From: Clostridia bacterium | GTDB taxonomy: Bacteria > Bacillota > Clostridia > UBA1212 > UBA1255 | Direction: 5' to 3' | DNA: 64,000 nucleotides | Assembly (NCBI GenBank): GCA_017508875.1 | Contig: JAFWQX010000066.1 | Coordinates: 1,584 to 65,583, forward strand | In this document: piece after piece, positions 24,047 through 41,859 of the stretch | How the letters are laid out: every line of letters begins with the position of its first letter | How positions within the stretch are numbered: position 1 is the stretch's first letter | Translations under genes and position numbers: made by a program | Notes under the pieces: model-generated | Database searches by the model: none | What the model was told of the DNA's origin: nothing | Seen by the model: the letters and a program-made list of their open reading frames with translations, nothing else

Positions 24047-24049
24047 AAA

Positions 24050-25402: not shown

Positions 25403-25407
25403 TCAAA

Positions 25408-26247: not shown

Positions 26248-26339
26248 TCAAAACAGAAAAGTGAACTCCTCCCTTGCGATACCATTGTACCGCGAAGGAG
26301 GAGTTCTGTAAAATGTGCGATTTCAGGCTTGGTCGGTCA

Positions 26340-26470
26340 GCAGATAAGCGGATGAAAATGCGCGCAGGGGCCGTAAATACTTGATTTTATTGTGGTATGG
26401 TCAAATCCGTTATCTCCACTCGGACCATACCGCTTTAGTGCTTTAAAGTGATGAATTTTCAGTTGGGATA
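26340..26470. repeat. Island cassette-boundary repeat, copy 1 (mini-ORF MRAGAVNT 26358-26384 + hairpin 26394-26431 + conserved tail)
   Basis: Aligns with copies at 27790-27900 and 30768-30895 and with tRNA-fMet 3' end/flank. Confidence 0.65.
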
Positions 26471-26579
26471 GAAGACAATGCAGACCTGAATCTTTACTTT
26501 TTTGTAAATTGGAGCGAATCATCTTTACTTTTCCGCTTTCTTGTGTTATAATAAGTAAAGATGAAAGTGAGGTCACACT

Positions 26580-27494
26580 ATGTTTTCATATAAAGGGTTG
26601 GAACAAAAACTGAAAGAGCGGGGAATTGGACGTTCTGATCTGACAAAACTGTTAGGGCTTTCTTCGCGGACGGTCGCAAAGGTAGGCAAAGGCGAGAAGC
26701 TTTCGCGCGGGGTTATGGAAAAACTTGCAGATTTCTTTGGGTGTTCTCCCGAAGAATTGTGCAGGGAGGTTTCGGACAATCCAATTCTGCAAATGCTGCG
26801 GGAAGAAAAAGAGGCGAAAATTTCCGGAGGGCTTTATCACGAGCTGCAGGTGCGTATGACCTACAACTCCAACCACATCGAAGGAAGTAGGCTCACGGAA
26901 GATCAGACACGATTGATTTTCGAAACGAACACGCTGAACGTCGGAGACGGCGTTCCGGTGGACGACATTTTGGAGACGGTGCATCATTTCCGCGCCATTG
27001 ACTACGTCATCGATTCGGCGGATCAAGTTCTTACCGAAGACATCATCAAGGAACTGCATTATATCCTCAAGCACGATACCAAGGATTCAACGCTTGATTG
27101 GTTCGCGGTAGGTGATTATAAAAAACGTCCGAACGTGGTTGGCGGTCGGGAGACGGCAAAACCGAAGGATGTACCGGTGCAGATGAAAAAGTTGCTTGAC
27201 GAATATAACGCGAAGCAGGATATAACGGTCAACGATATCATCGCTTTCCACGCCGAATTTGAAAAGATCCATCCTTTCCAGGATGGCAACGGTCGCGTCG
27301 GCAGACTTATCGCGCTGAAAGAATGTCTGCGGTTCTGTATCGTGCCGTTCCTCATCGAAGACAGCAAAAAGATGTTTTACTATAGAGGCCTGTCAGAGTG
27401 GGATAACGAAAAAGGCTGGCTCACCGACACCTGTCTTGATGGTCAGGATACATTCAGAAAATTGCTTGAAATGTTTGAAATAGAACTGGACTGA
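26580..27494 (+). CDS. Fic-family protein with N-terminal XRE-type HTH
   Basis: Fic motif HPFQDGNGRVGR; N-terminal LGLSSRTVAKVGKGEK HTH. Confidence 0.85.
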   Translation: MFSYKGLEQKLKERGIGRSDLTKLLGLSSRTVAKVGKGEKLSRGVMEKLADFFGCSPEELCREVSDNPILQMLREEKEAKISGGLYHELQVRMTYNSNHIEGSRLTEDQTRLIFETNTLNVGDGVPVDDILETVHHFRAIDYVIDSADQVLTEDIIKELHYILKHDTKDSTLDWFAVGDYKKRPNVVGGRETAKPKDVPVQMKKLLDEYNAKQDITVNDIIAFHAEFEKIHPFQDGNGRVGRLIALKECLRFCIVPFLIEDSKKMFYYRGLSEWDNEKGWLTDTCLDGQDTFRKLLEMFEIELD

Positions 27495-27789
27495 GAAGGC
27501 AATGTTTAGTCAAAAACAAAAAAGTTAAACCCAAAAACAATCAATTCTATATATTAGTAACAATTTGAAAGCAAGCAGGAAAAACAGCAACATTAGTGTT
27601 ATCAAACTTTTATGTAATGATGCAAATTATATTTTGAGGGAAAGAGCAAAAGGCCTTAGGAAACTTTAAGCGATAACGTAAATCTAAAAGAATGGCAGCC
27701 CTATGATTGAGAGCTGTCATTCTTTATTCTATCTTAGTATACTGTTTTCAAAACGTTTGGCATGGTGGTTCCTCTTATGTTTTTGTTAA

Positions 27790-27900
27790 TGATCCATGGA
27801 GGAAAAATGCGCGCAGGTGCCGTAAACACTTAGTTTTATTTGTGGTTTGGTCAAATCCGTTATCTCCACTCAGACCAAATCTTTGTAGCCACAAATCCAG
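27790..27900. repeat. Island cassette-boundary repeat, copy 2 (mini-ORF 27807-27833, hairpin 27844-27881)
   Basis: Same element; hairpin stem carries compensatory changes relative to copy 1 (tat/ata -> ttt/aaa). Confidence 0.65.
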
Positions 27901-27931
27901 TGCTTGGGTATTTGATCAAAGCCTTGAAAAC

Positions 27932-29080
27932 CTAATCCTCGTCATACGTTATTTCATAATGCAGTTGGAACGCTCCGGCAAGGTATCTGCGGCGGAGGTC
28001 GCTGTTTATCCATTCGATATTCTTTTGAAAAACGCTGCTGCCGCCGTTCCATTCGACCAGCTCGTCATGCCGCGGATCTTTCTTGTCTTGGAGAATACGG
28101 ATCAACTCTGAGAATCCTCCCGGGCCGCCGCAGTCCTCCGGTGGTGCGTCGCCTTTCAACTCCGTACATACCGGGGCGGGTAGATCAGCGTCTTCAATTA
28201 TCTCGACAAGCCGAATCTCGTGAGTCCACCCGTCGCCGAAATCATATTCGTAAGAAATGCGGTCGGTCTTAGAAAAGACCTCCTCAAGCGTGATCTCCCG
28301 CTCGTCAACGATTTCGCACCCGCGTGCGCCGTATATGTCATCATCTTCCGGAGACGGTATTCTTGCTAACTGTATCGGACGGCCACTTTTTGACCGCTTC
28401 AGGATAAACTCATGCAAGTGGTAATCTTTCCACAAAAACAAATTCTGAATGATATCGTGCAGATAGAATAGCGAAAAGTTCATAGGTACCGTAACGCATC
28501 TGAGGCAAGGCGTTTCAAGCTCAAGTGATATGTCAAAAACGCCGGCACGGGTACTGTAGAGCTTGCCATATTTTTCTTTAAGCGCACGTTCTTGCTCTTC
28601 GTAGGTTGCGTAGACGTCCTTTTTGTCGGAGGTGAACCTGAGATCATCATTGATCATAGGAAGCAGAACCGTTTGAAAACGATCGTCGGGTTCAAAACAG
28701 TTTTCGTAGCGTTCAATTCTTTGGCAGAACTTGTTTAATCTTGCAACGGAAGACCTATCGCCTGTTTTACACAAGCTTGCCGGGAAACAGCAATCGGCGA
28801 TATAGCGGTCGATCACCTCTTGGGAGATGCTTTCCGATGCGAGCATATTCCGTAATCCTGCCTCCAACAGTTCTTGCAACTTCTTTTTATCGCCTGCCGT
28901 GATCCCGTACAGCAGGAAACCGCATCCCGTCGAATCATTGGCGATCACAATGCACTTTCTGCGATTCATCACGATAAGATTTGCGGAAAAAGCAAAAAGT
29001 GGATCAATTCCTTTTGTGGCCTGTTCCGGAGATATGCCTAAATAATCAATCAGTTTTTTTGTGCATCCGATTTGTATCAT
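27932..29080 (-). CDS. pRiA4b ORF-3-like family protein (PRiA4_ORF3 domain) with N-terminal uncharacterized domain
   Basis: YEYDFGDGWTHEIRLVEI matches YxYDFGDxWxH signature; RBS AGAAAGGAAAGG. Confidence 0.65.
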   Translation of the reverse strand: MIQIGCTKKLIDYLGISPEQATKGIDPLFAFSANLIVMNRRKCIVIANDSTGCGFLLYGITAGDKKKLQELLEAGLRNMLASESISQEVIDRYIADCCFPASLCKTGDRSSVARLNKFCQRIERYENCFEPDDRFQTVLLPMINDDLRFTSDKKDVYATYEEQERALKEKYGKLYSTRAGVFDISLELETPCLRCVTVPMNFSLFYLHDIIQNLFLWKDYHLHEFILKRSKSGRPIQLARIPSPEDDDIYGARGCEIVDEREITLEEVFSKTDRISYEYDFGDGWTHEIRLVEIIEDADLPAPVCTELKGDAPPEDCGGPGGFSELIRILQDKKDPRHDELVEWNGGSSVFQKNIEWINSDLRRRYLAGAFQLHYEITYDED

Positions 29081-29118
29081 AATTGCCTTTCCTTTCTAAG
29101 ACTTAACAAAATCTCAGA

Positions 29119-30630
29119 TCAATGTTCAACTCTGTAAAACTTTTGATACTTGCTCTTAGGTTTCTCCGGTATCGTCATCGCGAGTTTGCCCGCGACGACA
29201 AGCGGTCTCAGGTATTTTGTAACAACGTAATACGGCGTTTGGATGTTCAGCATTGAGGCGATCTCTTCCTTGCTTTTCGGCTCTGTGCAAAAAGTAAGTA
29301 TCCGTTCTTCGACGGTGACGGATGGACTGCCGGGAACGATCGACGTTTCCTTTTTTGAAAACAGCGTCGCCTTGAAAATGCCTCTGTAGTTTTCAAACAG
29401 CGGCTCGGGAAGCCCGGCTTTCCTCATTGCTTCACGAATCGTCGGAATACCGGAAAAACGGTTTTCGGTATCGATCATGACTTCGAGATTGCTTGCGATA
29501 AACGGGTTTCTTGTGTCTCCCGGGACTTTTCCGAGATCGTTGATCGTCAGGCGTCCGTAAAGCCCGCCAGGATTTTCTACCACAAGTCTGTCGCGGAAAA
29601 GGATCACTCTGACAGGGGAGCCCTCGGTATGAACGCTGTAATCTCGGTGGATCAGAGCGTTCAGGATCAATTCGCGGACGGCGACGAGCGGATATTCCGG
29701 CTTATCGGTCCTGCGACCGTTTTCATCCACAACAACGGCGGTTTTTATGTTTCGCCTTACAAAGTTCATTGCGCCTTCCAGCATCTCCGGTATCGTTCCG
29801 TCAAAGCGCTTGTTGTCGATAAAGCGTTCTCCGGACGCTCCGAGGTCGCCAATCTCATATCCGTCTACGACCATAGCGGTGATACCGAGCTGGGGGAAAA
29901 ACGCTTGGGGATAATCGCCGACAAGCATCAGCCCGGCGACGGTAGGCTTGCCGTTATCCGTGAGCCCTTGAAGTTTCATGATTCTGAGATCATCCTGATT
30001 TGCGAGCTGCGGCTTTTCCGTTTTTAGCTTTGCAAAATACAAACTCAGTTTTTCGCGGCTGAGATCATCCGTTTCCGCGCGGTCCACGATTCGCAGCTCG
30101 TCGCGGATCTTCTTTTTATAGACTTCGTAACTGTAGATTTCATATTCGGTCATCGGCATATCCGCGTCGCCTACGCGAACATAAGAGCCGCGGATCCTGC
30201 CGGCTGGCTTATAGAAGCAAGGTTTATTTTCGGGCTCGCACTCCGGTATTTCGGCGCTTACGACCACTTTTCCTTCGTATTCGGCAACCGTAAAAAACGG
30301 GCGAACGACCGGTTCCATCTGCTCCGCGGCGTTTTTGACCTGGACCTGCAGATCCTGCGCGTCATATACGCCCGTAACCTCATACCCAGCCTTTTCATCA
30401 ACGCCGAAAATGATCGTACCGCCGTCATTCTGGTTGGAAAAGCTTGACAGAGTATCGTAAAGCTTTTTAGACGTGCCGCCCAACGCCTTTTTGACTTCCA
30501 CATACTGTTTTTCGCATTTCTGACGCTTCAGAGCGTCTATCAGTTCTATCAGATCTTTCTCTGTCAATGCTGTTGCTCCTTTCGTTATCACAATCTTATT
30601 ATAGTGTTTTTCAAAACGATTGTCAAACAT
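29119..30630 (-). CDS. Schlafen-like AlbA_2 DNA-binding domain + HATPase_c_4 (RecG-C-terminal-like) putative regulator
   Basis: N-terminal AlbA_2-like block (IVITKGATALTEKDLIELID..., FGVDEKAGYEVTGV), C-terminal NALIHRDYS GHKL-like motif. Confidence 0.7.
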   Translation of the reverse strand: MFDNRFEKHYNKIVITKGATALTEKDLIELIDALKRQKCEKQYVEVKKALGGTSKKLYDTLSSFSNQNDGGTIIFGVDEKAGYEVTGVYDAQDLQVQVKNAAEQMEPVVRPFFTVAEYEGKVVVSAEIPECEPENKPCFYKPAGRIRGSYVRVGDADMPMTEYEIYSYEVYKKKIRDELRIVDRAETDDLSREKLSLYFAKLKTEKPQLANQDDLRIMKLQGLTDNGKPTVAGLMLVGDYPQAFFPQLGITAMVVDGYEIGDLGASGERFIDNKRFDGTIPEMLEGAMNFVRRNIKTAVVVDENGRRTDKPEYPLVAVRELILNALIHRDYSVHTEGSPVRVILFRDRLVVENPGGLYGRLTINDLGKVPGDTRNPFIASNLEVMIDTENRFSGIPTIREAMRKAGLPEPLFENYRGIFKATLFSKKETSIVPGSPSVTVEERILTFCTEPKSKEEIASMLNIQTPYYVVTKYLRPLVVAGKLAMTIPEKPKSKYQKFYRVEH

Positions 30631-30694
30631 TTTTCAAAACAAAATCACGTTTTTCAAAACGAATTTTGATATTTTAACAATTGTGTTTTGAAAA
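30631..30694. promoter_or_regulatory. Operator-like TTTTCAAAAC decamer repeats (two direct upstream + one inside first codons + one inverted) upstream of AlbA_2/HATPase gene
   Basis: TTTTCAAAAC at 30608, 30631, 30651; GTTTTGAAAA at 30685. Confidence 0.4.
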
Positions 30695-30767
30695 ATGCGG
30701 CTTTTGTCAAATTGCGGAAGTGTTTCAGTGCCGCTTTTCGACAAAAGCCGTTGTTTTTATTGTCTTA

Positions 30768-30895
30768 TGATCCTCGGAGGAAAAATGCGTGCAGGTGCCG
30801 TAAACACTTGATTTTGTTGGGATTTGGTCAAATCCGTTATCTCCACTCAGACCATACTACCTTAGCGCTGTAAAGTGATGAATTTTTACTTTCGG
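30768..30895. repeat. Island cassette-boundary repeat, copy 3 (mini-ORF 30785-30811, weaker hairpin, conserved tail)
   Basis: Alignment with copies 1 and 2. Confidence 0.6.
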
Positions 30896-31307
30896 AGAGG
30901 TATTTAACAATCGTTATAATCGACAGAACAATGAACATTGTCAAAAACTTGTCGAAAAGTTGCGTCGTAAATGACGTAACTTTTTGATATTATGCTTTGA
31001 CGTAGGCGTACTATAATGTTATAATATCGAAAAGTAGCGTCGGCCCAGACGATATTGTGAGGTATAGATATGATAAAAAGAGATTTGTATTTGAACCGCA
31101 TCATAATTATGATGATAACGGTATTTATCATGTGAATCTTATTGATTTTCTTTTGGGAAAAGTGGAATTGTTTTGAAAACAAGCAAGTCTTGCGCGACCG
31201 TTCAAAGCGCGATCAAACGCCTGACTTAACTCTGATCGATCAAACAAAACGGGTCAAATAAAACCGGATAACGAACCAATATAAAAAATTCGGGGAGAAT
31301 AATTGAT

Positions 31308-31901
31308 ATGAAAAAGACCGAACTCGTTGAACGCTCAAAAATGTATTTGAAATTACTTATTAACGGGATACATCCTGTAACAGGGGAGCAGATCCCGACA
31401 GATTCTGCCTTATTGGGGGATAGAGTTAAAAAATGTTTTAGCTTTATCAGCGGGATCCTTGATGAATACATTGAATTAACCGGCAAAGTTGAAAAGCTCG
31501 AGAAGGAAAAGGAAGCTAATACTGTTATTGTTATGAAAAAGCAGCCATTTGCAATTTCACACGAACAATGCCAGGACATCAAGCTTTCAAAAGAACCAAT
31601 ATCGATGTACTCACTTGTGAGAAATATCAACTCAGTAATCAATACAGAATCAATGGAAAAAATGACTTCAACCGTTATCAACAAGTGGTTATTAAACAGA
31701 GGATTTATAACGGCGTCAAAAGTTCCGACAACTGTGAACAAAACTGTATTCAGCCCGTCGGAACTTGCGGCAAAAATAGGAATAAAAACCGAATCTGTTA
31801 TTAATAAGGCTACCGGCGAAATTAATCCGCAGATCAAATTCAGCGAAAGCGCTCAACTGTTTATAATTGAAAACATAGAAGAAATATCCGGATGCGTTTG
31901 A
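31308..31901 (+). CDS. Hypothetical protein (low GC, island-associated)
   Basis: ORF of 197 aa with RBS; preceded by TTGACG-17-TATAAT promoter at ~31036-31064; no recognizable motif. Confidence 0.4.
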   Translation: MKKTELVERSKMYLKLLINGIHPVTGEQIPTDSALLGDRVKKCFSFISGILDEYIELTGKVEKLEKEKEANTVIVMKKQPFAISHEQCQDIKLSKEPISMYSLVRNINSVINTESMEKMTSTVINKWLLNRGFITASKVPTTVNKTVFSPSELAAKIGIKTESVINKATGEINPQIKFSESAQLFIIENIEEISGCV

Positions 31902-31920: not shown

Positions 31921-33069
31921 TTAGCCTTTCACGAGCACGGTCTTCACGTTTTTGCCCGCGAGCGCATCGCGGAAAGCACGGTTCGTCTCGGAGACCGGAT
32001 ACGTTGTCGCCAGCGACCGGATAAGGGGCTGAAGTTCCGCGTGCTCTTTCAGGAAGGCGAGGTAGTCGTGAACGTCGATCATCGAATACTGCGAAGAACC
32101 GATGATCCGGAGCGCTTTAAACGTGATCAGCTCGGGCCGGATCTCAACGCCGCCCGCGTTACTGTATTGACCGGGAACGAGATAAACGCCGCGGTTTCGC
32201 AGAACGTTGATGCCGAGCGGGACAGCGGAAGGTGAGCCTGACGCCTCAAAGCACAGATCGACGCCGAGACCGCCGTTTTCCGCCTGGAGTTTTTTCTCAA
32301 CCGCGTCCGTGCCTTCCGCCTGAAGGCTCAGCACTTCGTCAGCGCCGAGTTCGAGCGCCAGTCTGCGCTTTTCAGGATTATCCCTGCCGGTCACAGCATA
32401 CAGTTTTTTTACGCCGATCGCGTGCAGATATACGATCGCGAAGCAGCCGACGGGGCCGAGCCCCTGAACGACGGCAACGGTTTCTTTTCCGGGGACAAAA
32501 CCCGCTCTTTGGCCCAGTCTGAATGCGTGTATTGCCGTGGGCCCGGGGCAGGCGAAGACCGCAGCTGCGACGGGGTCAATTCCTTCCGGTATCCGTACGA
32601 GGTTCGCAAGAGGAGTGAAATTGACCTCCGCGTACCCGCCGAACAGGTAAGGCGAAGTGTTTATGCTGCCCTCGTTCGTGACTTTCATATTCACGCAGTT
32701 CGCGTCGTCGCCGCTGAGGCAGAGGGGACATTCACCGCACGGCACCGCAATGTCGGCAATGACGTTGTCGCCGGGCTTCAGCCCGTATTTCGCCGCTTCC
32801 TCCGGATCGCAGTCATTAAGTCTTCCTACAAATTCATGTCCTACTATCGAATCCGCCGGTGCAAACAGCGTTCCTCTTTGAAAATGCAGGTCCGTGCCGC
32901 ATACGCCGCTCGCGATCAGCTCTGATCTTCCGTAGCCTTTCGGCGCCTTTACGACCTCGAATTCCCTGATCGCGAATGGCCTTCCGGGACCCTGAAACAC
33001 CGCGCCCTTTGCGGAAGGCGCTTTGATCTTATTGCTCCCGATGCAGTTGTTTTCAATAATTTCAGTCAT
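31921..33069 (-). CDS. Zinc-dependent alcohol dehydrogenase (MDR family)
   Basis: GVCGTDLH and GHEFVG catalytic-zinc motifs, structural-zinc Cys cluster CGECPLC, Rossmann GLGPVG; start set at MTEII with RBS AAAGGA. Confidence 0.85.
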   Translation of the reverse strand: MTEIIENNCIGSNKIKAPSAKGAVFQGPGRPFAIREFEVVKAPKGYGRSELIASGVCGTDLHFQRGTLFAPADSIVGHEFVGRLNDCDPEEAAKYGLKPGDNVIADIAVPCGECPLCLSGDDANCVNMKVTNEGSINTSPYLFGGYAEVNFTPLANLVRIPEGIDPVAAAVFACPGPTAIHAFRLGQRAGFVPGKETVAVVQGLGPVGCFAIVYLHAIGVKKLYAVTGRDNPEKRRLALELGADEVLSLQAEGTDAVEKKLQAENGGLGVDLCFEASGSPSAVPLGINVLRNRGVYLVPGQYSNAGGVEIRPELITFKALRIIGSSQYSMIDVHDYLAFLKEHAELQPLIRSLATTYPVSETNRAFRDALAGKNVKTVLVKG

Positions 33070-33101
33070 TTTAGCTAATCCTTTCTGGTACGAATAGTAA
33101 A

Positions 33102-33863
33102 TCACTCGACGGTACAATCGAAATATTGTCCGTAGATATTTTTTATGCGCGAAATTTCATCCGGGCCAGGCGGAGATGTCGATGCGTATGCGTATTCTTT
33201 CCCCATTGCCGCATATTTTGCACTTCCGAGCCGGTGAAAGGGGAGCAGATCCACTGACTTCACGCCCGCGCCAAGTAATTGACCGCACATGATTTCCGCG
33301 TCGTTTTCTGACAAATTAAACCCCGGTACGAGGGGTACACGCACGCGCACGTTCTCGCCGCGCCCCGTAAGTTTGCTGATATTGTTAAGTACCGCTTCCC
33401 GGTCTCCTCCGACGATTTTTGCGTACTTTTCGCTGTCCGCAGTTTTATAATCGATAAGGAACACCTGAATGCGGCCGAGCAGCGGCACGAACCGCTCCCA
33501 CGGAACGCACGCGGCTGTGTCTATGACCGTATTAACGCGTTCTTCAGCGAGCAGATCTATAAGCCCGGAGAACTCTTCGCTCTGAAGCATCGGCTCGCCT
33601 CCGCTTAAAGTGAGACCGCCGTCGTCCCCGTAAAATTCTTTATCTTCCAGCACTTCCTCCGCTATTCTCTCGATGGGCAAAAATCTCCCGTGAACGATAA
33701 CTTTCCCTGCCTGCGCGTATACCAGGCGCTCGGGCAATGCCGAAACCGTCTCGGGGTTATGGCACCACGGACAATGCAGGTTACAGCCCTTCAGGAATAC
33801 CGTCGTGCGTATCCCCGGACCGTCACCAGTGCTGAAGTGCTGTATTTCCGATACGTTTAACAT
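33102..33863 (-). CDS. Glycyl-radical enzyme activating protein (radical SAM)
   Basis: CNLHCPWCHNPE (CxxxCxxC), DGPGIRTTVFLKGC N-terminal block; start ATG 33863 or TTG 33869. Confidence 0.85.
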   Translation of the reverse strand: MLNVSEIQHFSTGDGPGIRTTVFLKGCNLHCPWCHNPETVSALPERLVYAQAGKVIVHGRFLPIERIAEEVLEDKEFYGDDGGLTLSGGEPMLQSEEFSGLIDLLAEERVNTVIDTAACVPWERFVPLLGRIQVFLIDYKTADSEKYAKIVGGDREAVLNNISKLTGRGENVRVRVPLVPGFNLSENDAEIMCGQLLGAGVKSVDLLPFHRLGSAKYAAMGKEYAYASTSPPGPDEISRIKNIYGQYFDCTVE

Positions 33864-33895
33864 GTTCAAAATTTCTGGCGCCCTGGCGGCAATTA

Positions 33896-36121
33896 TCAGA
33901 GATCGTCGTGCTGTGTGCGGCTAAGTATGTCGAGCTGGACCTCTTTCGCGAGCGTAACGTAGAGGGCTGAGAAACCGGAGACGCGGACAACGAGGGAACG
34001 GTAGTTTTCAGGATGTTCCATCGCGTCGATCAGTATCTTGCGCGAAGTCGAATTGATCTGGACTTCCTGGCCGCCGCGGCTGAAATACACGCGGATCAGC
34101 TTAAGCAGCTTTTCACGCTTCCCGTCCGCGAAGGCGGAAGGCGCAAATTTCTGATTAACCACCGTGCCGCACGCGCAATTCGTGTAATCGGGTTTAGAGA
34201 CGCTCAAGAGCGTTGACGTCACGCCGCGTGTATCGCATCCGTACGTGGGGGAGGCGGCGTCTGAAAGCGGCTTCCCGGCGAGTCTTCCGTCCGGCGTCGC
34301 GCCCAGAGCCATACCGGCGTTGATATTAGAAGTATTGGCCGCCATAGCGGTATAAAAACCGCCGCCGTCGTACGTGTGATACTTTCTGAACTCATCGGAC
34401 AAATGCTGCGTATACCAGACGGCGTAGCGGTCAACGAAATCGTCGTTGTTCCCGTATTTCGGCGCCGCGAGGGCAAGTGCGTGAAGTTCACCGTGACCTT
34501 CGTAATTATCGCGCATTGCCTGCACGATCTCCGAAAGCTTAGCGGCGCGGTCAACGAATACTATCTTTTCTATTGCCGCGAGCGAGTCGCTGACGGTCCC
34601 GACGCCCATAAGCGCCGCGCCGTGTATAGACGGATATTTCGAGCCGCCGTTGTTTATATCCTTGCCGCGCTCGATGCAGAACTGGGCGAAAAGCGACAGG
34701 AAGGAGCTGTTATAGTTTTCCGGATCAGGCACCGACATATAGCGGTTAGCGGTATCGACGTAATCTTTTACGGCCTTATCGAGCAGCAACGTATAGATCT
34801 TCATAAAATCTTCCATTGACTGAATGTCGTCAGGGCTGCTGAGTCTTCCGCCCTGTGCATCGCTTTTCACGCCGCATTCCGCAGCCGCACTCTGCAGCGT
34901 CTCACGGTCCAGAAGCATTTTTTCAAGGTAATTTATCGGGTCGAAACGCCCGTCGTTCCACGGCGGCTGCTGGCCGGGCAGGAAGTTTTCGATGCATCCC
35001 ACCATGCAGTAATTGCGCACGTCTTTAAGGTCGTATCCGTACCGCAGGAGGGCGGGAATATTCGCCATATCGTTCATAAGCGCGGGGTAGCCGAGACCGG
35101 TCCCGATGACTTTAAGGCATTCGTCCAGAAATTCGTCGGGCGTGTCAGGGGCAATGCGTGCAGAAAGGTTAGGACCGGGCATGTTGACGTCGCGTACGGC
35201 GCGAAGCACACAGAAGCTGAGCTCATTGACCGCGTTGATTCCGTCGGCGTCAACGCCCCCGATGCAGATATTTACGACGTCGTCTCCACCGAGAATCCTC
35301 TTTTCACAAATCTTCGCGAACGTGTTGGCAACGAGCAGTTCGGCTTCTTCGAACGTGATATTGCCGGCGTCAATATCTTTTTTGAACAGCGGGTACAGAT
35401 ACTGGTCGATCCTTCCGAGCGCCATGGCGTAGCGGCCCTCGTACAGATAGCAGCTGTGGATCATCCATACGAGCTGGAGCCCCTGCGCGAACGTCTGAGG
35501 CGCACCTTCCAAAAGCGCCTCGCAGTTGCTTTTTATGAAATCAAGCCGTGCAACTCCCGCAGGGTCGTTATCGCATTCCGCGGCAAGTTTTTTTGCAAGC
35601 TCCCCGTGTGCCCGGATACGCTCCGAGAGCCCCTTAAGCGCCAGCTCCATACTAAGCAGAAAGTCAACAACTTCCGGATCGTCAGAATGCTGCGCTTTCG
35701 ACGCTTCTATTTTGCGTTTCAGGCCTGGAATTCCGACGGTAAGAACGGTCTCGAAATCCGAAGCAAAATGGTCGCTATGCGTAGAAAAATTTCGCTCGGG
35801 ATACATCGCGTTAAGCCTGGCGGACTCAGCCTTCTGCTCGGGCGTAAGGTCAATAAACAGCGGCCTTATGCTTCCGACGATCAGGTCGTTTTTATATATT
35901 TGAGGCCGCGGCAACGTAAACAGCGAATAGATACCGGCCGCCCGTCTTCCTGACGGCGTGTCGCGGACAATATCTTCATCTGCGCCTTTTTCTTTTCTTT
36001 CAAAATAGCCGTATCCGACCGAGCGGAACCAGTCAGGTCTGTACTCTCCTGAAGCAGGGGAAAGCATCTCCTGCTTTAGCGTCTCTAAACTGTTGTTCCC
36101 GGCAAATTCACTGATTTTCAT
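33896..36121 (-). CDS. Glycyl radical enzyme, PFL2/glycerol-dehydratase-like family (substrate unknown)
   Basis: ~740 aa; C-terminal glycine-radical motif VRVSGFSALY; active-site Cys loop region; start taken at ATG 36121 with AGGAG 10 nt upstream (GTG 36130 alternative). Confidence 0.85.
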   Translation of the reverse strand: MKISEFAGNNSLETLKQEMLSPASGEYRPDWFRSVGYGYFERKEKGADEDIVRDTPSGRRAAGIYSLFTLPRPQIYKNDLIVGSIRPLFIDLTPEQKAESARLNAMYPERNFSTHSDHFASDFETVLTVGIPGLKRKIEASKAQHSDDPEVVDFLLSMELALKGLSERIRAHGELAKKLAAECDNDPAGVARLDFIKSNCEALLEGAPQTFAQGLQLVWMIHSCYLYEGRYAMALGRIDQYLYPLFKKDIDAGNITFEEAELLVANTFAKICEKRILGGDDVVNICIGGVDADGINAVNELSFCVLRAVRDVNMPGPNLSARIAPDTPDEFLDECLKVIGTGLGYPALMNDMANIPALLRYGYDLKDVRNYCMVGCIENFLPGQQPPWNDGRFDPINYLEKMLLDRETLQSAAAECGVKSDAQGGRLSSPDDIQSMEDFMKIYTLLLDKAVKDYVDTANRYMSVPDPENYNSSFLSLFAQFCIERGKDINNGGSKYPSIHGAALMGVGTVSDSLAAIEKIVFVDRAAKLSEIVQAMRDNYEGHGELHALALAAPKYGNNDDFVDRYAVWYTQHLSDEFRKYHTYDGGGFYTAMAANTSNINAGMALGATPDGRLAGKPLSDAASPTYGCDTRGVTSTLLSVSKPDYTNCACGTVVNQKFAPSAFADGKREKLLKLIRVYFSRGGQEVQINSTSRKILIDAMEHPENYRSLVVRVSGFSALYVTLAKEVQLDILSRTQHDDL

Positions 36122-36233
36122 CGGATCCACACTCCTGTACCGGTAAAAGTTTCAAAAACTGAAACTATACCCGCTGATCTTCGGAAAGTATATAATAAAA
36201 AAAGATAAAATGCAAACAAAAACTCTTTTTCCG

Positions 36234-36690
36234 CCGGGCGGCGGATAACTTTGGCACACAAAGTGGTAAAATCGGGTTTTGTGTGCCAGGCGGGCGCTGT
36301 CTCTTAGCCGGGCAGCAGCTAACTTTGGCACACAAAGTGGTAAAATCGGGTTTTGTGTGCCAGCAGGGCGCTGTCTCTCAGCCGGGCAGCAGCTAACTTT
36401 GGCACACAAAGTGGAAAAATCGAGATTTGTGTGCCAGCCCGGCTCTATCTTGAGAACATCAGAAGGCGAAAAATGAACAATTCGTGGCACACAAATCGCC
36501 GAAATTGAGGATCGTGTGCCACTCCTCCTAAATCTCCGGGAAAAAATGAGAAATTCGTGGCACACAAATCGCCGAAATCGAGGATCGTGTGCCACTCCTC
36601 CTAAATCTCCGGGGGAAAATGAGAAATTCGTGGCACACAAATCGACGAAATCGAGGATCGTGTGCCACTTCTCCTCAACCTCAGCAGGAA
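36234..36690. repeat. Array of six ~65-73-bp tandem units, each containing a long palindrome (type A x3: TGGCACACAAA-N15-TTTGTGTGCCA; type B x3: GTGGCACAC-N21-GTGTGCCAC)
   Basis: Palindromes at 36252-36288, 36326-36362, 36399-36436, 36485-36521, 36558-36594, 36630-36666; spacers between them nearly identical. Confidence 0.8.
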
Positions 36691-36761
36691 AATGAACAAT
36701 CCGTAGCGCGAGAAGATGTCAATACAATCATATGCAAATTAAGGCATAGATATACTCGCTG

Positions 36762-36813
36762 CTTGTTGCTCGTTCCTCGTTCCTCGTTCATCGTTACTCG
36801 TTGCTCGTCGTTC
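36762..36813. repeat. Heptamer microsatellite TTNCTCG x7 (CTCGTTCC-type) immediately upstream of promoter
   Basis: ttgctcg ttcctcg ttcctcg ttcatcg ttactcg ttgctcg tcgttcc. Confidence 0.6.
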
Positions 36814-36893: not shown

Positions 36894-37190
36894 ATGAACA
36901 TAACAAAAAACAGAGAAGAAAACAAATTGACCGTCGCCGTCGAAGGAAAGATCGACTCTGTTACCGCACCGGAATTCGAAGAATTTATCAGGGAAAATAT
37001 TGACGGCGTGACCGAACTGACGTTCGATCTCTCGTCGCTCGACTATATATCTTCCGCAGGACTGCGCGTGCTTCTGCTTACCCAGAAACGCATGAATGCA
37101 CAGGGTACGATGAAGGTTACAAACGTCAATGAAACAGTGAGTGAGATTTTTGAAGTTACCGGTTTTTCTGACATACTCACTATCGCTTAA
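36894..37190 (+). CDS. STAS-domain anti-sigma-factor antagonist (SpoIIAA/RsbV-like)
   Basis: 98 aa; DLSSLDYISSAGLRVLL with conserved phosphorylatable Ser context; RBS AAAGGGGA. Confidence 0.8.
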   Translation: MNITKNREENKLTVAVEGKIDSVTAPEFEEFIRENIDGVTELTFDLSSLDYISSAGLRVLLLTQKRMNAQGTMKVTNVNETVSEIFEVTGFSDILTIA

Positions 37191-37217
37191 GCGGATGCTT
37201 TTAATAAGGAGCGCACA

Positions 37218-39356
37218 ATGCCCGAAAAAAGTGTAAGAGAGATGAATAAATACGAGAGGCTGCGTTATTCGCTCGCTTCCCGTACGTTCCATACTGCGAT
37301 AGGCGGAGCTGCGATCCTGGGGATCGTTGCCCTGGTCATCGGCCTCGGATGGTACGCTTATTCATACTCGAGCCAGCTTATCAAAGGAGCGTTCGGCGTT
37401 TCGAAGAACGCCCAGATGATAATATCGAAAATCATCGATCCGACCGATCTGGGGCGCGACGTGATGGATCTGTACAGATTGGTTCCTGAAGAAACCCGCG
37501 GTGACGGGGATGACGCGGAATACCTTTCACTGTACGACTCGTTTAAAACGCGGGAGGATTACGTACAGATATTGTCGATCCTTAAAGATTTTCGCGATTC
37601 CAGCACTGTCAGCGACGTGTACTACGCTATGTACGACGAAGAAACGGGTATGCTGGTATATTTTGCGGATCCGGACGAAGACGAAGACACTGTATGCCCT
37701 ACGGGCTTTTTTGAGACCGCCACGAAGAAAGAACTCAATACGTTCCTTCGCTGGAACGGCAAAAAAACGCCTTATTATATAGAAAAGACCGAAAGATACG
37801 GCTGGATCTGCACGACCGGAATAAGTGTAAAGGATCAGGACGGAAGCATTGCCGGATTCATACTCGCGGACGTAACGCTAAAAGAAGTGGGAAGCGGAAT
37901 GCTCAGGTTCCTGCTCCAGTACGGAATATCGATGTTCGTACTCATAAATCTTGTCGCGATATTCATGACGCGCCACATGAAGAAAAAGCTGGTAAAGCCC
38001 ATAAACGAGATCGCTGAGGCTGCCGAAGCGTATCTGAAAGATAAGAAAGACGGCGCAAGGGTGACGGATCATTTCTCGAAACTCAATATAAATACGGGTG
38101 ACGAAGTTGAGAATCTTGCCCTTATTATGGCAGATATGGAAACCGACCTGGCGGATTACGAGGACGATCTTACCAGAGTTGCCGCGGAAAAAGAGCGCAT
38201 CAGCATCGAACTTTCGCTCGCGACAAGGATCCAGGCGGATATGCTGCCGAATATTTTCCCCGCATTTCCTGAAAGAAGCGAGTTTGACGTGTTTGCGTCA
38301 ATGAAACCCGCGAAAGAAGTTGGCGGCGATTTTTACGACTTCTTCCTTATTGACGAAGACCACCTCGGACTCGTAATGGCTGACGTATCGGGGAAAGGTG
38401 TCCCCGCGGCGCTGTTTATGATGGTATCGAAGATACTTGTCCAGAACATAGCGATGTCAGGTAAAAGCCCGGCGGAGGTCATTAAGACTATCAACGCTCA
38501 GATCTGCGCCAATAACCGCGAAGAAATGTTCGTGACGGTGTGGTTCGGAGTGCTGGACGTTCGCGACGGCACGCTTAGGGCGGTCAATGCGGGCCATGAA
38601 TATCCGATGCTTAAGAAGCCCGGCGGCGACTTCGAACTGGTAAAAGACACACACGGATTCGTTGTGGGCGGATTCGCATCTTCAAAATACAAAGAATATG
38701 AACTGAAGCTTGAACCCGGTGCGAAGCTGTTTTTGTATACCGACGGAGTTACGGAAGCGTCTAACGAAGATTCCGTGCTTTTCGGAACGGGGCGAACGCT
38801 CGAAGTGCTGAATAAAAATAAAAATGAGGAGCCGGAGAAGGTCGTTCAGAGTGTAAACAATGCGATCTCTGAGTTTTGCGGAAGCGCTCCGCAGTTCGAT
38901 GATATTACGCTTATGTGTCTCGAGTATTTCGGGAAAGGGAACACGGAAATGAAGGAAATTACTGTCGAAGCCAAAATTGAAAATATCCCTGAAGTCACTG
39001 ATTTTGTCAACGGCGAACTTGAGAAACTTGAGTGTTCACTTAAGGCGCAGATGCAGATAGACGTGGCGATAGACGAAATGTTCGGCAACATTGCCCGCTA
39101 CGCATACGGCGGGGGCGCGGGAAACGCGACAGTTCAGATTCGCGCAAAGAAAGAACCCAAAGCGGTGGAACTGACGTTTATTGACGGCGGCACCCCGTAC
39201 GATCCTCTGAAGAAAGACGATCCGGATATCTCTCTCGGAGCTGACGAGAGGGAAGTCGGAGGGCTCGGGATCTTCCTGGTCAAAAAAACGATGGATGATA
39301 TGAAATACGAATATAAAGACGGGCAGAACAGACTTACGGTAACCAAATTGCTGTGA
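37218..39356 (+). CDS. Membrane sensor - PP2C (SpoIIE/RsbU-type) phosphatase - HATPase_c (RsbW/SpoIIAB-type kinase) fusion protein
   Basis: Two TM segments flanking ~180-aa extracytoplasmic domain; PP2C motifs GGDFYDFF, DVSGKGVPAALFM, TDGVTEA; C-terminal GHKL region VELTFIDGG...GGLGIFLVKK. Confidence 0.8.
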   Translation: MPEKSVREMNKYERLRYSLASRTFHTAIGGAAILGIVALVIGLGWYAYSYSSQLIKGAFGVSKNAQMIISKIIDPTDLGRDVMDLYRLVPEETRGDGDDAEYLSLYDSFKTREDYVQILSILKDFRDSSTVSDVYYAMYDEETGMLVYFADPDEDEDTVCPTGFFETATKKELNTFLRWNGKKTPYYIEKTERYGWICTTGISVKDQDGSIAGFILADVTLKEVGSGMLRFLLQYGISMFVLINLVAIFMTRHMKKKLVKPINEIAEAAEAYLKDKKDGARVTDHFSKLNINTGDEVENLALIMADMETDLADYEDDLTRVAAEKERISIELSLATRIQADMLPNIFPAFPERSEFDVFASMKPAKEVGGDFYDFFLIDEDHLGLVMADVSGKGVPAALFMMVSKILVQNIAMSGKSPAEVIKTINAQICANNREEMFVTVWFGVLDVRDGTLRAVNAGHEYPMLKKPGGDFELVKDTHGFVVGGFASSKYKEYELKLEPGAKLFLYTDGVTEASNEDSVLFGTGRTLEVLNKNKNEEPEKVVQSVNNAISEFCGSAPQFDDITLMCLEYFGKGNTEMKEITVEAKIENIPEVTDFVNGELEKLECSLKAQMQIDVAIDEMFGNIARYAYGGGAGNATVQIRAKKEPKAVELTFIDGGTPYDPLKKDDPDISLGADEREVGGLGIFLVKKTMDDMKYEYKDGQNRLTVTKLL

Positions 39357-39397
39357 CCTGCACAAGCTGCACTTCAAATAAAAAGGAGACAGAAGAT

Positions 39398-40570
39398 ATG
39401 AAATATAAAGAAAACGGCAGTGAATTGACAATAAATTTTGAGGGGCACATTGATTCCGCAAACGCGAAGGAGATAGAAGACGAGATCAGCGCCATAAAGG
39501 CAAAGGCACACCCGGAAAAACTTGTCATTGACTGCGAGAATCTTCAGTATATATCAAGCGCCGGACTCAGGATAGTTCTGCGCCTGATGAAAGAGATCAA
39601 ACCTATTTCTATCGTCAACGTCTCTTCCGAGGTTTACGAGATATTCGATATGACCGGTTTTACGGAGATGGCGGAGGTGCACAAAGCGTACAGAAAAGTG
39701 TCCGTCGACGGCTGCGAAATTATCGGAAAAGGTGCGAACGGAACCGTGTACAGAATTGACCGCGACACGATCGTAAAGGTCTACGTGAACCCGGATTCGC
39801 TGCCGGAAATCCAGCGCGAACGCGAGCTTGCCCGAAAAGCATTCGTGCTCGGTATCCCGACCGCTATACCGTACGACGTTGTCCGCGTAGGCGAAGGCTA
39901 CGGTTCGGTTTTTGAACTGCTCAGCGCAAAAAGCCTCGCTGAGATCCTCTCCAAAGATCCCGGCCAGTTCGACAGCGTACTTAAATACAGCGTGGATCTG
40001 CTCAAAACGATCCATTCGAAAGAACTTCCGAAAGGCGAGATGCCTGACTGCAAAGCCACGGTGCTGGGATGGGTGGAATTTCTGAAAGACTACCTTCCGG
40101 AAGCGCAATATAAAAAACTCAAGGCGCTCGTGGAGGCTGTCCCCGAGGATAACCATATTATGCACGGCGATTATCATATGAAAAACGTCATGCTGCAGGA
40201 CGGAGAAGCGCTGCTGATAGATATGGACACGCTGTGCCTCGGCCACCCGGTGTTCGAATTCGGCTCGATTTTTAATTCGTATATCGGATATTCTGAACTC
40301 GATACGGAAAACGTCAGAAAATTCCTCGGCATTCCTTTTGAAACCGCGAAACAGATATGGGACAGGACGGTGCGTATGTATTTCGGAACCGACGACGAGG
40401 CATTCATTCAGGCGGTAAAGGACAAGGCGAAGGTCGTAGGTTATACGAGAGTTATGCGCCGCGCGATTCGCCGCGGGTCAATGGACGATCCCGCCACGCT
40501 TGCTGTCGTCAATAACTGCAGAAAGCATTTTGACGAACTGCTTGCGCGCCTTGACACACTTGAATTCTGA
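39398..40570 (+). CDS. STAS domain fused to aminoglycoside-phosphotransferase/choline-kinase-like (protein-kinase fold) domain
   Basis: N-terminal STAS (LQYISSAGLRIVLRL); kinase-like Gly loop GKGANGTVY, Lys in VKVY, catalytic HGDYHMKNVML, IDMDT metal-binding loop. Confidence 0.7.
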   Translation: MKYKENGSELTINFEGHIDSANAKEIEDEISAIKAKAHPEKLVIDCENLQYISSAGLRIVLRLMKEIKPISIVNVSSEVYEIFDMTGFTEMAEVHKAYRKVSVDGCEIIGKGANGTVYRIDRDTIVKVYVNPDSLPEIQRERELARKAFVLGIPTAIPYDVVRVGEGYGSVFELLSAKSLAEILSKDPGQFDSVLKYSVDLLKTIHSKELPKGEMPDCKATVLGWVEFLKDYLPEAQYKKLKALVEAVPEDNHIMHGDYHMKNVMLQDGEALLIDMDTLCLGHPVFEFGSIFNSYIGYSELDTENVRKFLGIPFETAKQIWDRTVRMYFGTDDEAFIQAVKDKAKVVGYTRVMRRAIRRGSMDDPATLAVVNNCRKHFDELLARLDTLEF

Positions 40571-40583
40571 GAGGGGCGCCGCC

Positions 40584-41774
40584 ATGAAGATATACGTGCG
40601 AAAAAAGAAGCCGAAGCTTTACGGCCTGCTGATATTCTCGATAGTGTTTGTGATCGCCGTCGCGGTCCTTTATGCGATCTCGCAAAGCACGAGCTTTAAT
40701 GCGCTGCCTTACATAACGGTATCGATGCCGCTGTATTTTGCCGCAGTGCTTGTTATACTTGTGATATCGCTCAAAAGGCAGATCGAGTACAATCCTTATT
40801 CGTACAATACGATCTATTATTTCGGCTTTTCGCTGTTCGTATTGTCCGTGCTCGTCACCCATATTGCCGCGGCGATCAGATATTTCATGAACACCGGGGA
40901 ATACGGATTCCGCGATACGGCCAGAATCATACTCTGGTCTGCGCGGCAATACATGATCGTAACGTTTCCGCTGCTCGCTGTTTTCTCGATAGGCCTTCTG
41001 GTCTCGAATATTGTCCTAATTAAGAAAGAGGGGAAGAGCCTCGCCAATACTCTGGGCATTCTGCTCGCCGTAGCACTGATGGCGGGAGAGGGAGTGCTTA
41101 TCTGGCTCGGAAGCATTGCGTCGGGTCCTTTCGGTATCGCGATCAATCTTTTATGCGCCATTTTTGTTTACGCGGAATGTATGCTGTTCGGGGCGATTTT
41201 CGCTGACATTCTGGTGGCAACGCACGTTCCGGCGTATGACAAGGATTATATTCTGATATTGGGCTGCAAGGTAGCGAAAAACGGCGAACCGATGCCGATA
41301 CTTCAAAAACGTATTGACCGCGCCATCGCTTTTTATGACGAGCAGGTGAGCAGGACGGGGAAAGCTCCCGTATTCATTCCGTCCGGCGGAAAAGGGGCCG
41401 ATGAGCCGTTGTCCGAAGCGGAATGCATGCGCAATTACCTGATCGCCAAAGGGTTTACCGATGAGCAGATAATAATGGAAGACGAATCGAAAAATACCAT
41501 ACAGAACATGCGTTTTTCCTTTAAAAAAGTTCCCGAAGAGGCGAAATGCGCCTTTTCAACTTCCGGATATCACGTTTTCAGAAGCGGCATAGCAGCTAAC
41601 AGGGCGCAGAAATTCAAGGCGGAAGGCGTAGGCGCTCCGTCCAGATGGTATTTCTGGCCGAACGCTTCGGTGAGAGAATTCATCGGACTGCTTACGGGCC
41701 ACAGGGGAAAGCAGCTGCTCGTGCTGTTCGGGCTGATCGCGGCGTACCTGCTGCTGAGCTTTCTGGCCGGATGA
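40584..41774 (+). CDS. Polytopic membrane protein with C-terminal DUF218 (YdcF/SanA/ElyC-like) domain
   Basis: 6 predicted TM helices then ILGCKV...PILQKRIDRAIAFY...FIPSGGKG...ECMRNYL (DUF218 pattern). Confidence 0.6.
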   Translation: MKIYVRKKKPKLYGLLIFSIVFVIAVAVLYAISQSTSFNALPYITVSMPLYFAAVLVILVISLKRQIEYNPYSYNTIYYFGFSLFVLSVLVTHIAAAIRYFMNTGEYGFRDTARIILWSARQYMIVTFPLLAVFSIGLLVSNIVLIKKEGKSLANTLGILLAVALMAGEGVLIWLGSIASGPFGIAINLLCAIFVYAECMLFGAIFADILVATHVPAYDKDYILILGCKVAKNGEPMPILQKRIDRAIAFYDEQVSRTGKAPVFIPSGGKGADEPLSEAECMRNYLIAKGFTDEQIIMEDESKNTIQNMRFSFKKVPEEAKCAFSTSGYHVFRSGIAANRAQKFKAEGVGAPSRWYFWPNASVREFIGLLTGHRGKQLLVLFGLIAAYLLLSFLAG

Positions 41775-41859
41775 TCTTTTTGCTCGCGTTTTGCTCGCGA
41801 TGAGTTGCCAATCCGGGCAGATCAGTATATAATATAAAAAAATACCCGGAGGTAACTGT

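Follow-up and report, generated by a model that had tools for sequence, protein, structure and literature searches.

What does a glycyl radical enzyme (GRE) do when its gene is followed by the genes of its activase and of a zinc-dependent medium-chain dehydrogenase/reductase (Zn-MDR, hereafter MDR), and when no characterised GRE family accounts for it? This question is raised by a locus of a Clostridia bacterium (contig JAFWQX010000066.1 of assembly GCA_017508875.1), which lies in a stretch of 64,000 nucleotides referred to here as the window. The minus strand of the window encodes a GRE of 741 amino acids (33896..36121; Pfam PFL-like and Gly_radical domains), a GRE-activating radical S-adenosylmethionine (SAM) enzyme of 253-255 amino acids (33102..33869; Radical_SAM/Fer4_12 and TIGR02494 matches) and a Zn-MDR of 382 amino acids (31921..33069; ADH_N and ADH_zinc_N domains). 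A first-pass annotation, made from the sequence alone, had reported these genes at the same positions and on the same strand, and the Pfam domains agree with it. As judged by its sequence, the GRE, an oxygen-sensitive radical enzyme, belongs to a deep-branching family that matches no characterised GRE family. We propose that the three genes constitute a self-contained catabolic module of a rumen Clostridia bacterium.

Family placement and active site of the glycyl radical enzyme

The Pfam profiles PF02901 (4e-113, from profile position 144) and PF01228 (8.5e-25) place the protein in the GRE superfamily, and the glycine-radical motif RVSGF that had been noticed earlier is present, with Gly716 (33976-33974) as the radical residue; in the form RV.G[FY], this motif is found in 189 of 189 members of the family. 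When the enzyme was scored with the profile models of NCBIfam, whose curated cut-offs are used throughout, each model for a characterised GRE gave a score well below its cut-off: 331.6 bits for CutC (TIGR04394; cut-off 1050), 321 for HypD (NF043068; 1100), 318.9 for HpfG (1000), 312.7 for HpsG (1000), 294 for PflD (1109), 252 for HPAD (1150), 229 for IAD (1100) and 131.8 for PFL (TIGR01255; 994). The first-pass annotation had also assigned the enzyme to PFL2. The Cys-X-Glu (CXE) motif and the best matches, which are glycerol dehydratase (GD) and 1,2-propanediol dehydratase (PD), speak for this assignment, but with TIGR01774, the model of the PFL2 subfamily, the enzyme reached only 408.1 of the 678.2 bits that the cut-off requires, with the match starting at model position 153, and membership in that subfamily is therefore not supported.

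Comparison with individual enzymes led to the same placement. The best sequence match in the PDB was GD of Clostridium butyricum (4e-98), and all other characterised GREs scored lower, IslA and IseG for instance with 221-233 bits. A reference set was taken from annotated plasmid records (GD, a PD-like enzyme associated with a bacterial microcompartment (BMC), CutC, HypD, YbiW, PflD and PflB) and aligned with 22 members of the family. The window GRE is 28-32% identical to GD, the PD-like enzyme, CutC, HypD, YbiW and PflD (GD, 31.6%; GD/PD-like, 31-32%; HypD, 28.9%; YbiW and PflD, 28-29%), whereas these references are 31-64% identical among themselves, the upper value being that of GD and the PD-like enzyme. 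In a neighbour-joining tree rooted on PflB, the GRE family formed a separate deep clade outside all reference eliminases and isomerases. The tree and the NCBIfam scores thus place the enzyme outside every characterised clade compared, and tight clustering within such a clade together with identical active-site residues, which would have made it an ordinary member of a known family, was not found.

A review of GREs published in June 2026 describes 13 characterised eliminases and isomerases (GD, PD, HpfG, HypD, HpyG, HpzG, CutC, IslA, IseG, HpsG, HplG, YbiW and PflD) and points out that entire GRE clades remain unvalidated. The remoteness of the window GRE from the reviewed families holds, by sequence, for the families scored here, and the operon is not a categorically new system, since unannotated GRE clades are already known. 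Literature searches for this GRE family, or for a GRE linked to an MDR, a polyol, quinate or rhamnogalacturonan, found no relevant paper. The candidate explanation that the enzyme is an ortholog of YbiW or PflD, or that it originated in E. coli, was rejected after megablast had found nothing matching among 5,426 E. coli genomes. Relatives of the GRE were detected in 340 genomes in a scan that included one genome per species. The closest genome is a metagenome-assembled genome (MAG) of a yak-rumen Clostridia bacterium, with a GRE 96% identical to that of the window, and the best 80 of the 340 genomes are almost all MAGs of rumen or hindgut Clostridia. Beyond this core family, the nearest relatives among 1.84 billion cluster representatives are short GREs of 690-726 amino acids with 39-43% identity, which have the signature D/S-H, GC[IV]E, W.D and A[AS]N in common; ordinary PFL2 enzymes of ~790 amino acids come next.

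The catalytic residues of the window GRE agree with those of GD. In the alignment, Cys433, Glu435, His164, Asp447, Trp445 and Gly763 of GD correspond to Cys376 (34996-34994), Glu378 (34990-34988), His118 (35770-35768), Asp390 (34954-34952), Trp388 and Gly716, respectively. Throughout the family, there is little or no variation in G-C376-I-E378, His118, Asp390, Trp388 and RVSG716F (188-189 of 189 members): GC.E occurs in all 189 and GCIEN[FL] together with DH[FY] in 188. The signature is uniform, and no active-site subtype was found that tracks the presence or absence of the MDR. The CXE motif is the hallmark of eliminases and isomerases, every characterised one of which keeps it according to the June 2026 review; PflB has CCVS instead, and the adjacent pair of cysteines that is characteristic of PFL is replaced by G-C in the window GRE. 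According to the same review, Glu435 of GD is the base for the C1 hydroxyl and His164 the acid for the leaving C2 hydroxyl. The equivalents of both residues are kept, and therefore both roles could be filled in the window GRE.

The shell around these residues is different. His281, Ser282, Tyr339 and Gln340 of GD are replaced by Tyr231, Ala232, Val282 and Val283, Pro436/Gln437 by Asn379/Phe380, and Tyr640/Pro641/Ser642 by Ala594/Ala595/Asn596. Therefore, of the residues with which GD binds glycerol, His164 and Asp447 are kept and His281, Ser282, Tyr339 and Tyr640 are changed. The shells of other families are not reproduced either: Val282 and Asn596 stand where PD has Phe (position 339 of GD) and Val (position 642), His118 stands where CutC has its signature Asp, and no Arg occurs at the shell positions aligned with the Arg/Gln/Arg clamp that binds sulfonates. 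An aspartate directly before the catalytic histidine, Asp117, is invariant in the family and has no counterpart in GD or PD. The short length of the GRE results from a clean deletion of ~47 residues (GD residues ~84-130) and from smaller ones, among them the deletion of an 8-residue loop before the catalytic histidine that bears Asn156 in GD. The first-pass annotation had noted the absence of the PFL N-terminal region, which is incorrect, as the N-terminal helices of PFL2 and an ELIVGS-type motif are present. The replacements in the shell and the two loop deletions suggest that the substrate cavity is probably larger than that of GD and differently lined, with catalytic machinery that is GD-like. 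An AF2 model of the enzyme (pLDDT 80, pTM 0.84) was compared with known structures by Foldseek; GD ranked highest, three structures of PD followed (TM 0.80-0.82 for GD and PD), and CutC and the rest came after them (all at TM ~0.8).

Operon structure, activase and dehydrogenase partner

The raw open reading frames (ORFs) extend over 33896..36130 for the GRE (744 amino acids from a GTG), 33102..33869 for the activase (255 amino acids) and 31921..33117 for the MDR (398 amino acids). The start of the GRE had been left ambiguous between GTG 36130 and ATG 36121. We favour the ATG, because AGGAG lies 10 nt upstream of it and only 1 nt from the GTG; moreover, gene calls in the database and in the same species give 741 amino acids, in agreement with this start. 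The MDR most likely begins at ATG 33069, which is preceded by AAAGGA at 9 nt, yields 382 amino acids and does not overlap the activase gene. For the activase, TTG 33869 and ATG 33863 both remain candidates and lie 26-32 nt after the GRE stop codon. With intergenic gaps of ~30 nt each, the spacing indicates that the three genes form one operon. A scan found no terminator-like site in either gap, and two weak terminator-like stem-loops inside the coding regions of the three genes are fewer than expected by chance. Downstream of the MDR, a gene call of the same species places a convergent gene of 197 amino acids (window 31308-31901, plus strand), and therefore the operon has three genes. A minus-strand ORF of 203 amino acids (31226-31837) was considered as a fourth gene and rejected, as it has no Pfam match and lies where the convergent gene is called. 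Upstream, a consensus scan identified a candidate sigma-70-type promoter, TTTGCA-18-TATACT (36187..36216, minus strand), 66 nt from the GRE start. It matches the consensus at 9 of 12 positions, and promoter-like sites are not enriched over shuffled sequences, so that it is a weak candidate; the GRE-proximal sequence around it is kept in a 96%-identical relative, L006 (L-numbers denote loci of GRE relatives).

The activase exceeds the cut-off of TIGR02494 (222.7 bits against 174) and contains the CX3CX2C cluster motif CNLHCPWC at 33785-33762. In 30 activases of the family, these three radical-SAM cysteines are the only ones conserved, and the ferredoxin-like segment of ~42 residues with additional cysteines, which is found in the activases of GD, HypD and PD and in a shorter form in PflC, is cleanly absent. 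The ferredoxin-like domain with auxiliary clusters is typical of activases of eliminases and isomerases, and the window activase does not have it; the June 2026 review reports the radical-SAM domain alone only for the activases of PFL and of class III ribonucleotide reductase. In a sister clade, the activase of L095 (298 amino acids, 38% identical) retains Fer4 domains, and therefore the loss of the domain appears to fall within the lineage of the window GRE. Among core-family loci with enough downstream DNA, an activase 42-68% identical to that of the window adjoins the GRE in 57 of 70.

The third gene product matches PF08240 and PF00107, having the GroES-like and Rossmann domains of a Zn-MDR. 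GVCGTD, GHEFVG and FACPGPT correspond to the motifs of the catalytic zinc, CGECPLCLSGDDANC to the four cysteines of the structural zinc, and GLGPVG to the Rossmann motif. The zinc and Rossmann motifs are conserved across the MDR family, and the loop that determines cofactor specificity is variable. Earlier, the protein had been assigned to the polyol/threonine dehydrogenase type. Its motifs argue against this, since the ligands of the catalytic zinc appear to be Cys-His-Cys, the pattern of alcohol dehydrogenases and PbfG, and not the Cys-His-Glu of threonine and sorbitol dehydrogenases. The best NCBIfam match is TIGR03366, a phosphonate-associated alcohol dehydrogenase, but the score of 125.6 bits is below the cut-off of 328.1, and no phosphonate genes were found in loci related to the window GRE. 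The best match in the PDB is Thermotoga TM0436 (1vj0; phmmer 2.4e-36), for which a literature search returned passing mentions only.

An ortholog of this MDR, 58-80% identical to that of the window, adjoins the GRE in 54 of the same 70 loci, in which GRE identity ranges from 52 to 72%. The database family of the MDR mirrors that of the GRE, including shared contigs, and mean pairwise identities in 29 complete loci are 0.60 for the GRE, 0.52 for the activase and 0.67 for the MDR, the values of GRE and MDR being correlated. Furthermore, three sister loci out of seven have an orthologous MDR beside a GRE that is 38-49% identical to that of the window, and in two cases this MDR is located upstream of the GRE. 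These MDRs are 41-55% identical to that of the window, which clearly exceeds its distant similarity to any MDR of solved structure. The occurrence of orthologous MDRs beside sister-clade GREs in another gene order implies that the partnership predates the core family and survives rearrangement. The descriptions of characterised eliminases and isomerases in the June 2026 review name no Zn-MDR partner, and GD of C. butyricum is paired with an iron-dependent alcohol dehydrogenase (Fe-ADH). The first-pass annotation had described the pairing of a GRE with a Zn-MDR as unusual, which is correct and indeed understated: as far as gene content and sequence tell, the MDR is a co-inherited, cognate partner of the GRE and a trait of the family rather than a quirk of the window.

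Proposed reaction and competing explanations

The genes around the GRE loci point to carbohydrates. A CE6-like SASA (SGNH) esterase, whose nearest structures are proteins related to acetylxylan esterases, follows the MDR in 17 of 65 loci, and a divergent AraC regulator is present in 23 of 67. Occasionally, the neighbours include GH43, a GH43/32-like protein, a GDSL esterase, aldo-keto reductases (AKRs), Gfo/Idh/MocA oxidoreductases, and EamA and TAXI-TRAP transporters, and sister loci contain a monosaccharide-type ABC transporter, GH123, GH42, GH18, CE4, and rhamnogalacturonan-lyase-like and ulvan-lyase-like genes. As previously noted for the window, there are no BMC shell genes, either there or in 85 related loci. 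The GRE loci also have no recurrent kinase, aldolase or CoA-acylating aldehyde dehydrogenase, and this combination of absences fits a short route in which a substrate is dehydrated and then reduced.

From gene identities, catalytic residues, the distinctness of the family, the conserved partnership and the carbohydrate neighbourhood, we infer a reaction type, a direction for the MDR and a substrate class. With moderate confidence, we suggest that the GRE catalyses a GD-like radical C-O elimination, as a 1,2-eliminase, on a neutral carbohydrate-derived diol or polyol, and that the MDR, in a step coupled to the elimination, converts a carbonyl to an alcohol or the reverse in dependence on NAD(P)H. 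The compound acted on would probably carry no charge, exceed glycerol and propanediol in size and originate from plant carbohydrate. In the proposed mechanism, the small activase, with a single [4Fe-4S] cluster and SAM, would take a hydrogen from Gly716, and the glycyl radical would generate a thiyl radical on Cys376, which would abstract a hydrogen from a carbinol carbon in the substrate. The hydroxyl on this carbon would lose its proton to Glu378, the Glu of the CXE motif, and His118, backed by Asp390, would protonate a vicinal oxygen leaving group, so that water or a ring or ether oxygen departs. The resulting alpha-carbonyl radical would regain a hydrogen from Cys376 to give an aldehyde or a ketone. 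In the simplest direction, the MDR would then reduce this carbonyl with NAD(P)H and serve as an electron sink, like DhaT after glycerol dehydratase; alternatively, it might convert a carbonyl precursor into the hydroxylated compound on which the GRE acts. The CE6/SGNH esterase, encoded in about a quarter of the loci, could free the substrate from an acetyl ester. A more far-reaching version of this proposal, which we regard as tentative, is that the clade of short GREs, together with the ancestral Zn-MDR, deoxygenates unphosphorylated plant-cell-wall sugars, alditols or cyclitols by radical chemistry: the MDR would make the polyol, the GRE would dehydrate it to a deoxy-carbonyl compound, and the MDR would reduce this again. 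This would represent an undescribed class of GRE substrates and a fermentative electron sink that is widespread in rumen and hindgut Clostridia and uses an activase without an auxiliary Fe-S domain.

Several observations weigh against C-O elimination on a carbohydrate-derived polyol with the MDR as partner. The MDR is not adjacent to the GRE in 16 of the 70 loci, and the correlation between pairwise identities of GRE and MDR in the 29 complete loci (r = 0.67) is uncorrected for species phylogeny. The size of the pocket was judged from an alignment, not from coordinates, and the lowest confidence of the AF2 model (pLDDT <50) falls on residues 596-626 and on the glycine loop, 708-724. The esterase and carbohydrate-active neighbours occur in a minority of loci and are variable, and no conserved transporter was found among the GRE loci. 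Two further features are unexplained by the model. The invariant Asp117 might serve to bind an amine, and C-N chemistry would then be indicated. Among curated families, the one nearest to the MDR comprises phosphonate-associated alcohol dehydrogenases rather than reductases of sugars or aldehydes.

Next in probability to a larger polyol as substrate, although we consider it unlikely, is that the GRE is a divergent glycerol or 1,2-propanediol dehydratase of known chemistry and that the Zn-MDR replaces the usual Fe-ADH (1,3-propanediol or propanol dehydrogenase). By both sequence and fold, the best matches are GD and PD, the gene order is identical to dhaB1-dhaB2-dhaT of C. butyricum, including an AraC regulator, and the distal pocket is hydrophobic, a change in the same direction as the PD-like Y339F and S642V. 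In two sister clade loci, rhamnose-rich polysaccharide-lyase-like genes adjoin the GRE, and 1,2-propanediol is a product of rhamnose catabolism. However, GD and the PD-like enzyme are twice as similar to each other (64%) as either is to the window GRE (31-32%), which differs from both at seven positions of the substrate shell, does not have the Asn156 loop of GD, and falls short even of the general PFL2 model (408 against 678 bits). In addition, PD enzymes are normally associated with a BMC, for which neither the window nor the 85 loci contain genes, and a dehydratase of this kind would leave the invariant Asp117 unexplained.

Slightly less likely still is a ring-opening or ether-cleaving isomerase, comparable to YbiW, PflD and HplG, with an anhydro-sugar or cyclic carbohydrate that is not phosphorylated as the substrate and a deoxy-ketose, which the MDR would reduce, as the product. 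The CXE motif and the equivalent of His164 are compatible with this, being kept in YbiW and PflD as well, an enlarged pocket would accommodate a ring, and the carbohydrate neighbourhood would fit, with its occasional AKR and Gfo/Idh/MocA reductases and the monosaccharide ABC transporter of a sister locus. On the other hand, the GRE loci were found to contain no phosphotransferase system (PTS), kinase or aldolase genes like those that accompany YbiW and PflD, identity to these two enzymes (28-29%) is below that to GD, and Asp390 agrees with GD, PD and PflD but not with YbiW.

The least probable explanation is a C-N, C-S or C-P lyase that follows the logic of isethionate degradation, in which the MDR would first reduce an aldehyde resembling aminoacetaldehyde, sulfoacetaldehyde or phosphonoacetaldehyde and the GRE would cleave the beta-substituted alcohol (for example, 2-hydroxyethylphosphonate (HEP) from the 2-aminoethylphosphonate of rumen protozoa); the rumen habitat would suit it, as would the TIGR03366 match of the MDR, its Cys-His-Cys zinc pattern, which is reported for the HEP dehydrogenase PbfG, and Asp117 beside the catalytic histidine, given that CutC holds an ammonium group with an Asp at the position of this histidine. 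A pathway of the hydroxyethylphosphonate/isethionate type was considered and retained only as an improbable explanation: the MDR is not a member of TIGR03366 (126 bits against 328), the alignment and the residue list of the review place Thr/His and Ala where IslA, IseG and HpsG have two Arg and one Gln for the anionic group, the 85 loci contain no aminotransferase, no phosphonate or sulfonate transporter and no genes for the handling of sulfite or phosphite, and the equivalent of His164 is kept as in the C-O cleavers compared (GD, PD-like, HypD, YbiW and PflD) and not as in CutC.

Flanking regions, wider relevance and known systems

The first-pass annotation had reported an array of six palindromes just upstream of the GRE. 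These are real: the pattern TGGCACAC-N21-GTGTGCCA occurs six times, with none expected by chance. The array (window 36233-36707) consists of two adjacent triple tandem repeats, one with 74-bp units (36233-36454) and one with 73-bp spacing (36465-36707), and each repeat unit carries one palindrome. It is located between the promoter region of the GRE and a divergent STAS gene, and a spurious ORF of 162 amino acids (36152-36640) runs through it. The array was considered as an operator of the operon and rejected, as the pattern is absent from 93 loci, including the 96%-identical L006. It is also absent from two assemblies of the same species, and the intergenic region in L006 and in L101, from the same species, is only ~260-280 bp long. 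Its absence from close relatives means that the array is not part of the conserved design of the operon, and it seems to be a repeat element whose insertion is specific to the strain. Beside the STAS promoter, the window contains degenerate repeats of the TCGTT[GC]C type (36756-36808), and L006 has a different repeat there (gtaatttg/caatttg, 9870-9915); this intergenic region seems to be a hotspot of repeat turnover.

On the plus strand, the divergent genes encode a STAS protein (36897-37190), a PP2C SpoIIE phosphatase fused to an RsbW-like HATPase_c_2 kinase (37218-39356), a STAS domain fused to an APH-type kinase domain (39353-40570), a DUF218 protein (40500-41774) and a zinc-ribbon protein (41860-43590). 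This cluster (36897-43590) looks like a partner-switching system. A functional link between the GRE operon and the STAS/SpoIIE-RsbW/STAS-APH genes was rejected, as only the closest relatives, those with a GRE at least 70% identical (L001, L002, L006-L008 and L101), have both. Loci beyond these have unrelated neighbours at this position, for example PolC, GcpE or an AraC regulator, and we read the arrangement as plain synteny. On the other side, directly downstream of the MDR, the GC content of window ~24000-31900 is 0.40-0.43 in three of four 2-kb windows, compared with ~0.50-0.55 in most of the rest. This stretch encodes an AbiEi-like protein (24320-25402), an HTH and Fic/DOC protein (26580-27494), a DUF6933 and PRiA4_ORF3 protein (27932-29080, minus strand) and an AlbA_2/Schlafen and HATPase_c_4 protein (29119-30630, minus strand). 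With such genes of toxin-antitoxin, defence or mobile type, it is probably an inserted island.

Some related loci have features of their own. Two GRE-MDR modules are present in each of the MAGs SIG629 (L037/L038) and SIG424 (L069/L071), both copies in SIG629 being accompanied by the esterase, which suggests paralogous expansion, perhaps for related substrates. In three 72%-identical relatives (L001, L002 and L007), a second, unrelated radical-SAM protein of 260-291 amino acids is encoded after the MDR (12121-12996), and the window has no counterpart of it. In L098 (2394-11319) and L100 (4418-9046), a URO-D-family protein, possibly a methyltransferase, and an orthologous Zn-MDR accompany a short GRE; L098 has a tandem of two distinct GREs that share 35% identity, and in the core-family locus L076 a B12-binding corrinoid protein directly follows the GRE. 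The URO-D and corrinoid neighbours may hint at a step in which a methyl group is transferred or removed. That the sister clades have a polysaccharide lyase as a regular partner was considered and rejected, as the large neighbours in L094, L096, L098, L099 and L100 have no detectable homology to each other or to neighbours in the core family.

The chemistry of GREs shapes metabolism in the gut, where it contributes to the formation of trimethylamine, H2S, p-cresol and propanol. The clade described here is large, with 340 species-level genomes, those listed being almost all from uncultured bacteria of animal, mostly herbivore, guts, and its sequences are isolated from every characterised GRE compared. 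What is new is the combination of a deep-branching family of putative GRE eliminases with internal deletions, a minimal activase and an ancestral Zn-MDR partner. The MDR is a ready partner for a coupled assay with NAD(P)H as the read-out, and a module of three genes makes the discovery of its function tractable. Furthermore, the contrast between an eliminase-type GRE with a minimal, PflA-like activase and a sister clade that keeps the ferredoxin domain can be used to study the role of auxiliary clusters, and expression may be easier for activases that are minimal. Should the substrate indeed be a polyol derived from plant carbohydrate, the operon would add a fermentation or electron-sink route that is relevant to the balance of hydrogen and methane in the rumen.

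Among the known systems, PbfG/TIGR03366 and TM0436 (1vj0) resemble only the MDR: they are Zn-MDRs with four structural cysteines and an apparent Cys-His-Cys catalytic site. The similarity is distant, and the context of the window MDR is a GRE with carbohydrate genes, not phosphonate genes. CutC and IslA/IseG have the superfamily fold, the CXE motif and an alcohol dehydrogenase or reductase encoded beside the GRE (a sulfoacetaldehyde reductase in the case of IslA), but CutC has an Asp where the window family keeps a His, and the Arg, Gln and Arg with which IslA binds the sulfonate are absent from the window GRE. YbiW and PflD are GREs of carbohydrate metabolism that conserve CXE and the histidine and pass a carbonyl product downstream; in contrast to the window enzyme, to which they are 28-29% identical, they act on phosphorylated substrates with PTS and aldolase partners, have ferredoxin-type activases and lack an MDR partner.

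The dehydratases are closer. PD of Roseburia inulinivorans (PDB 5i2g and 9rco) provides the second-best fold matches (TM 0.82), has CXE, His and Asp in common with the window GRE, and shares with it a distal pocket that is more hydrophobic than in GD. However, PD is BMC-associated and has ~840 amino acids, whereas the window system is without BMC genes, and the PD-like enzyme of Citrobacter differs from GD at two shell positions, the window family at seven or more. The closest system by both sequence (4e-98) and fold is that of C. butyricum, consisting of the GRE DhaB1, the activase DhaB2 and DhaT. The GRE identity of ~32%, the replacement of His281, Ser282, Tyr339 and Tyr640 by Tyr, Ala, Val and Ala, the deletions of 47 and 8 residues, the activase without a ferredoxin-like domain and the Zn-MDR in place of an Fe-ADH set the window operon apart from it. 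What the two have in common is the Cys-x-Glu motif, His164, Asp447, Trp445 and the glycine motif (in GD numbering), and also the layout of the locus, since the GD locus of C. butyricum has the same order of GRE, activase and alcohol dehydrogenase, together with an AraC regulator of the kind that is common upstream in the window family.

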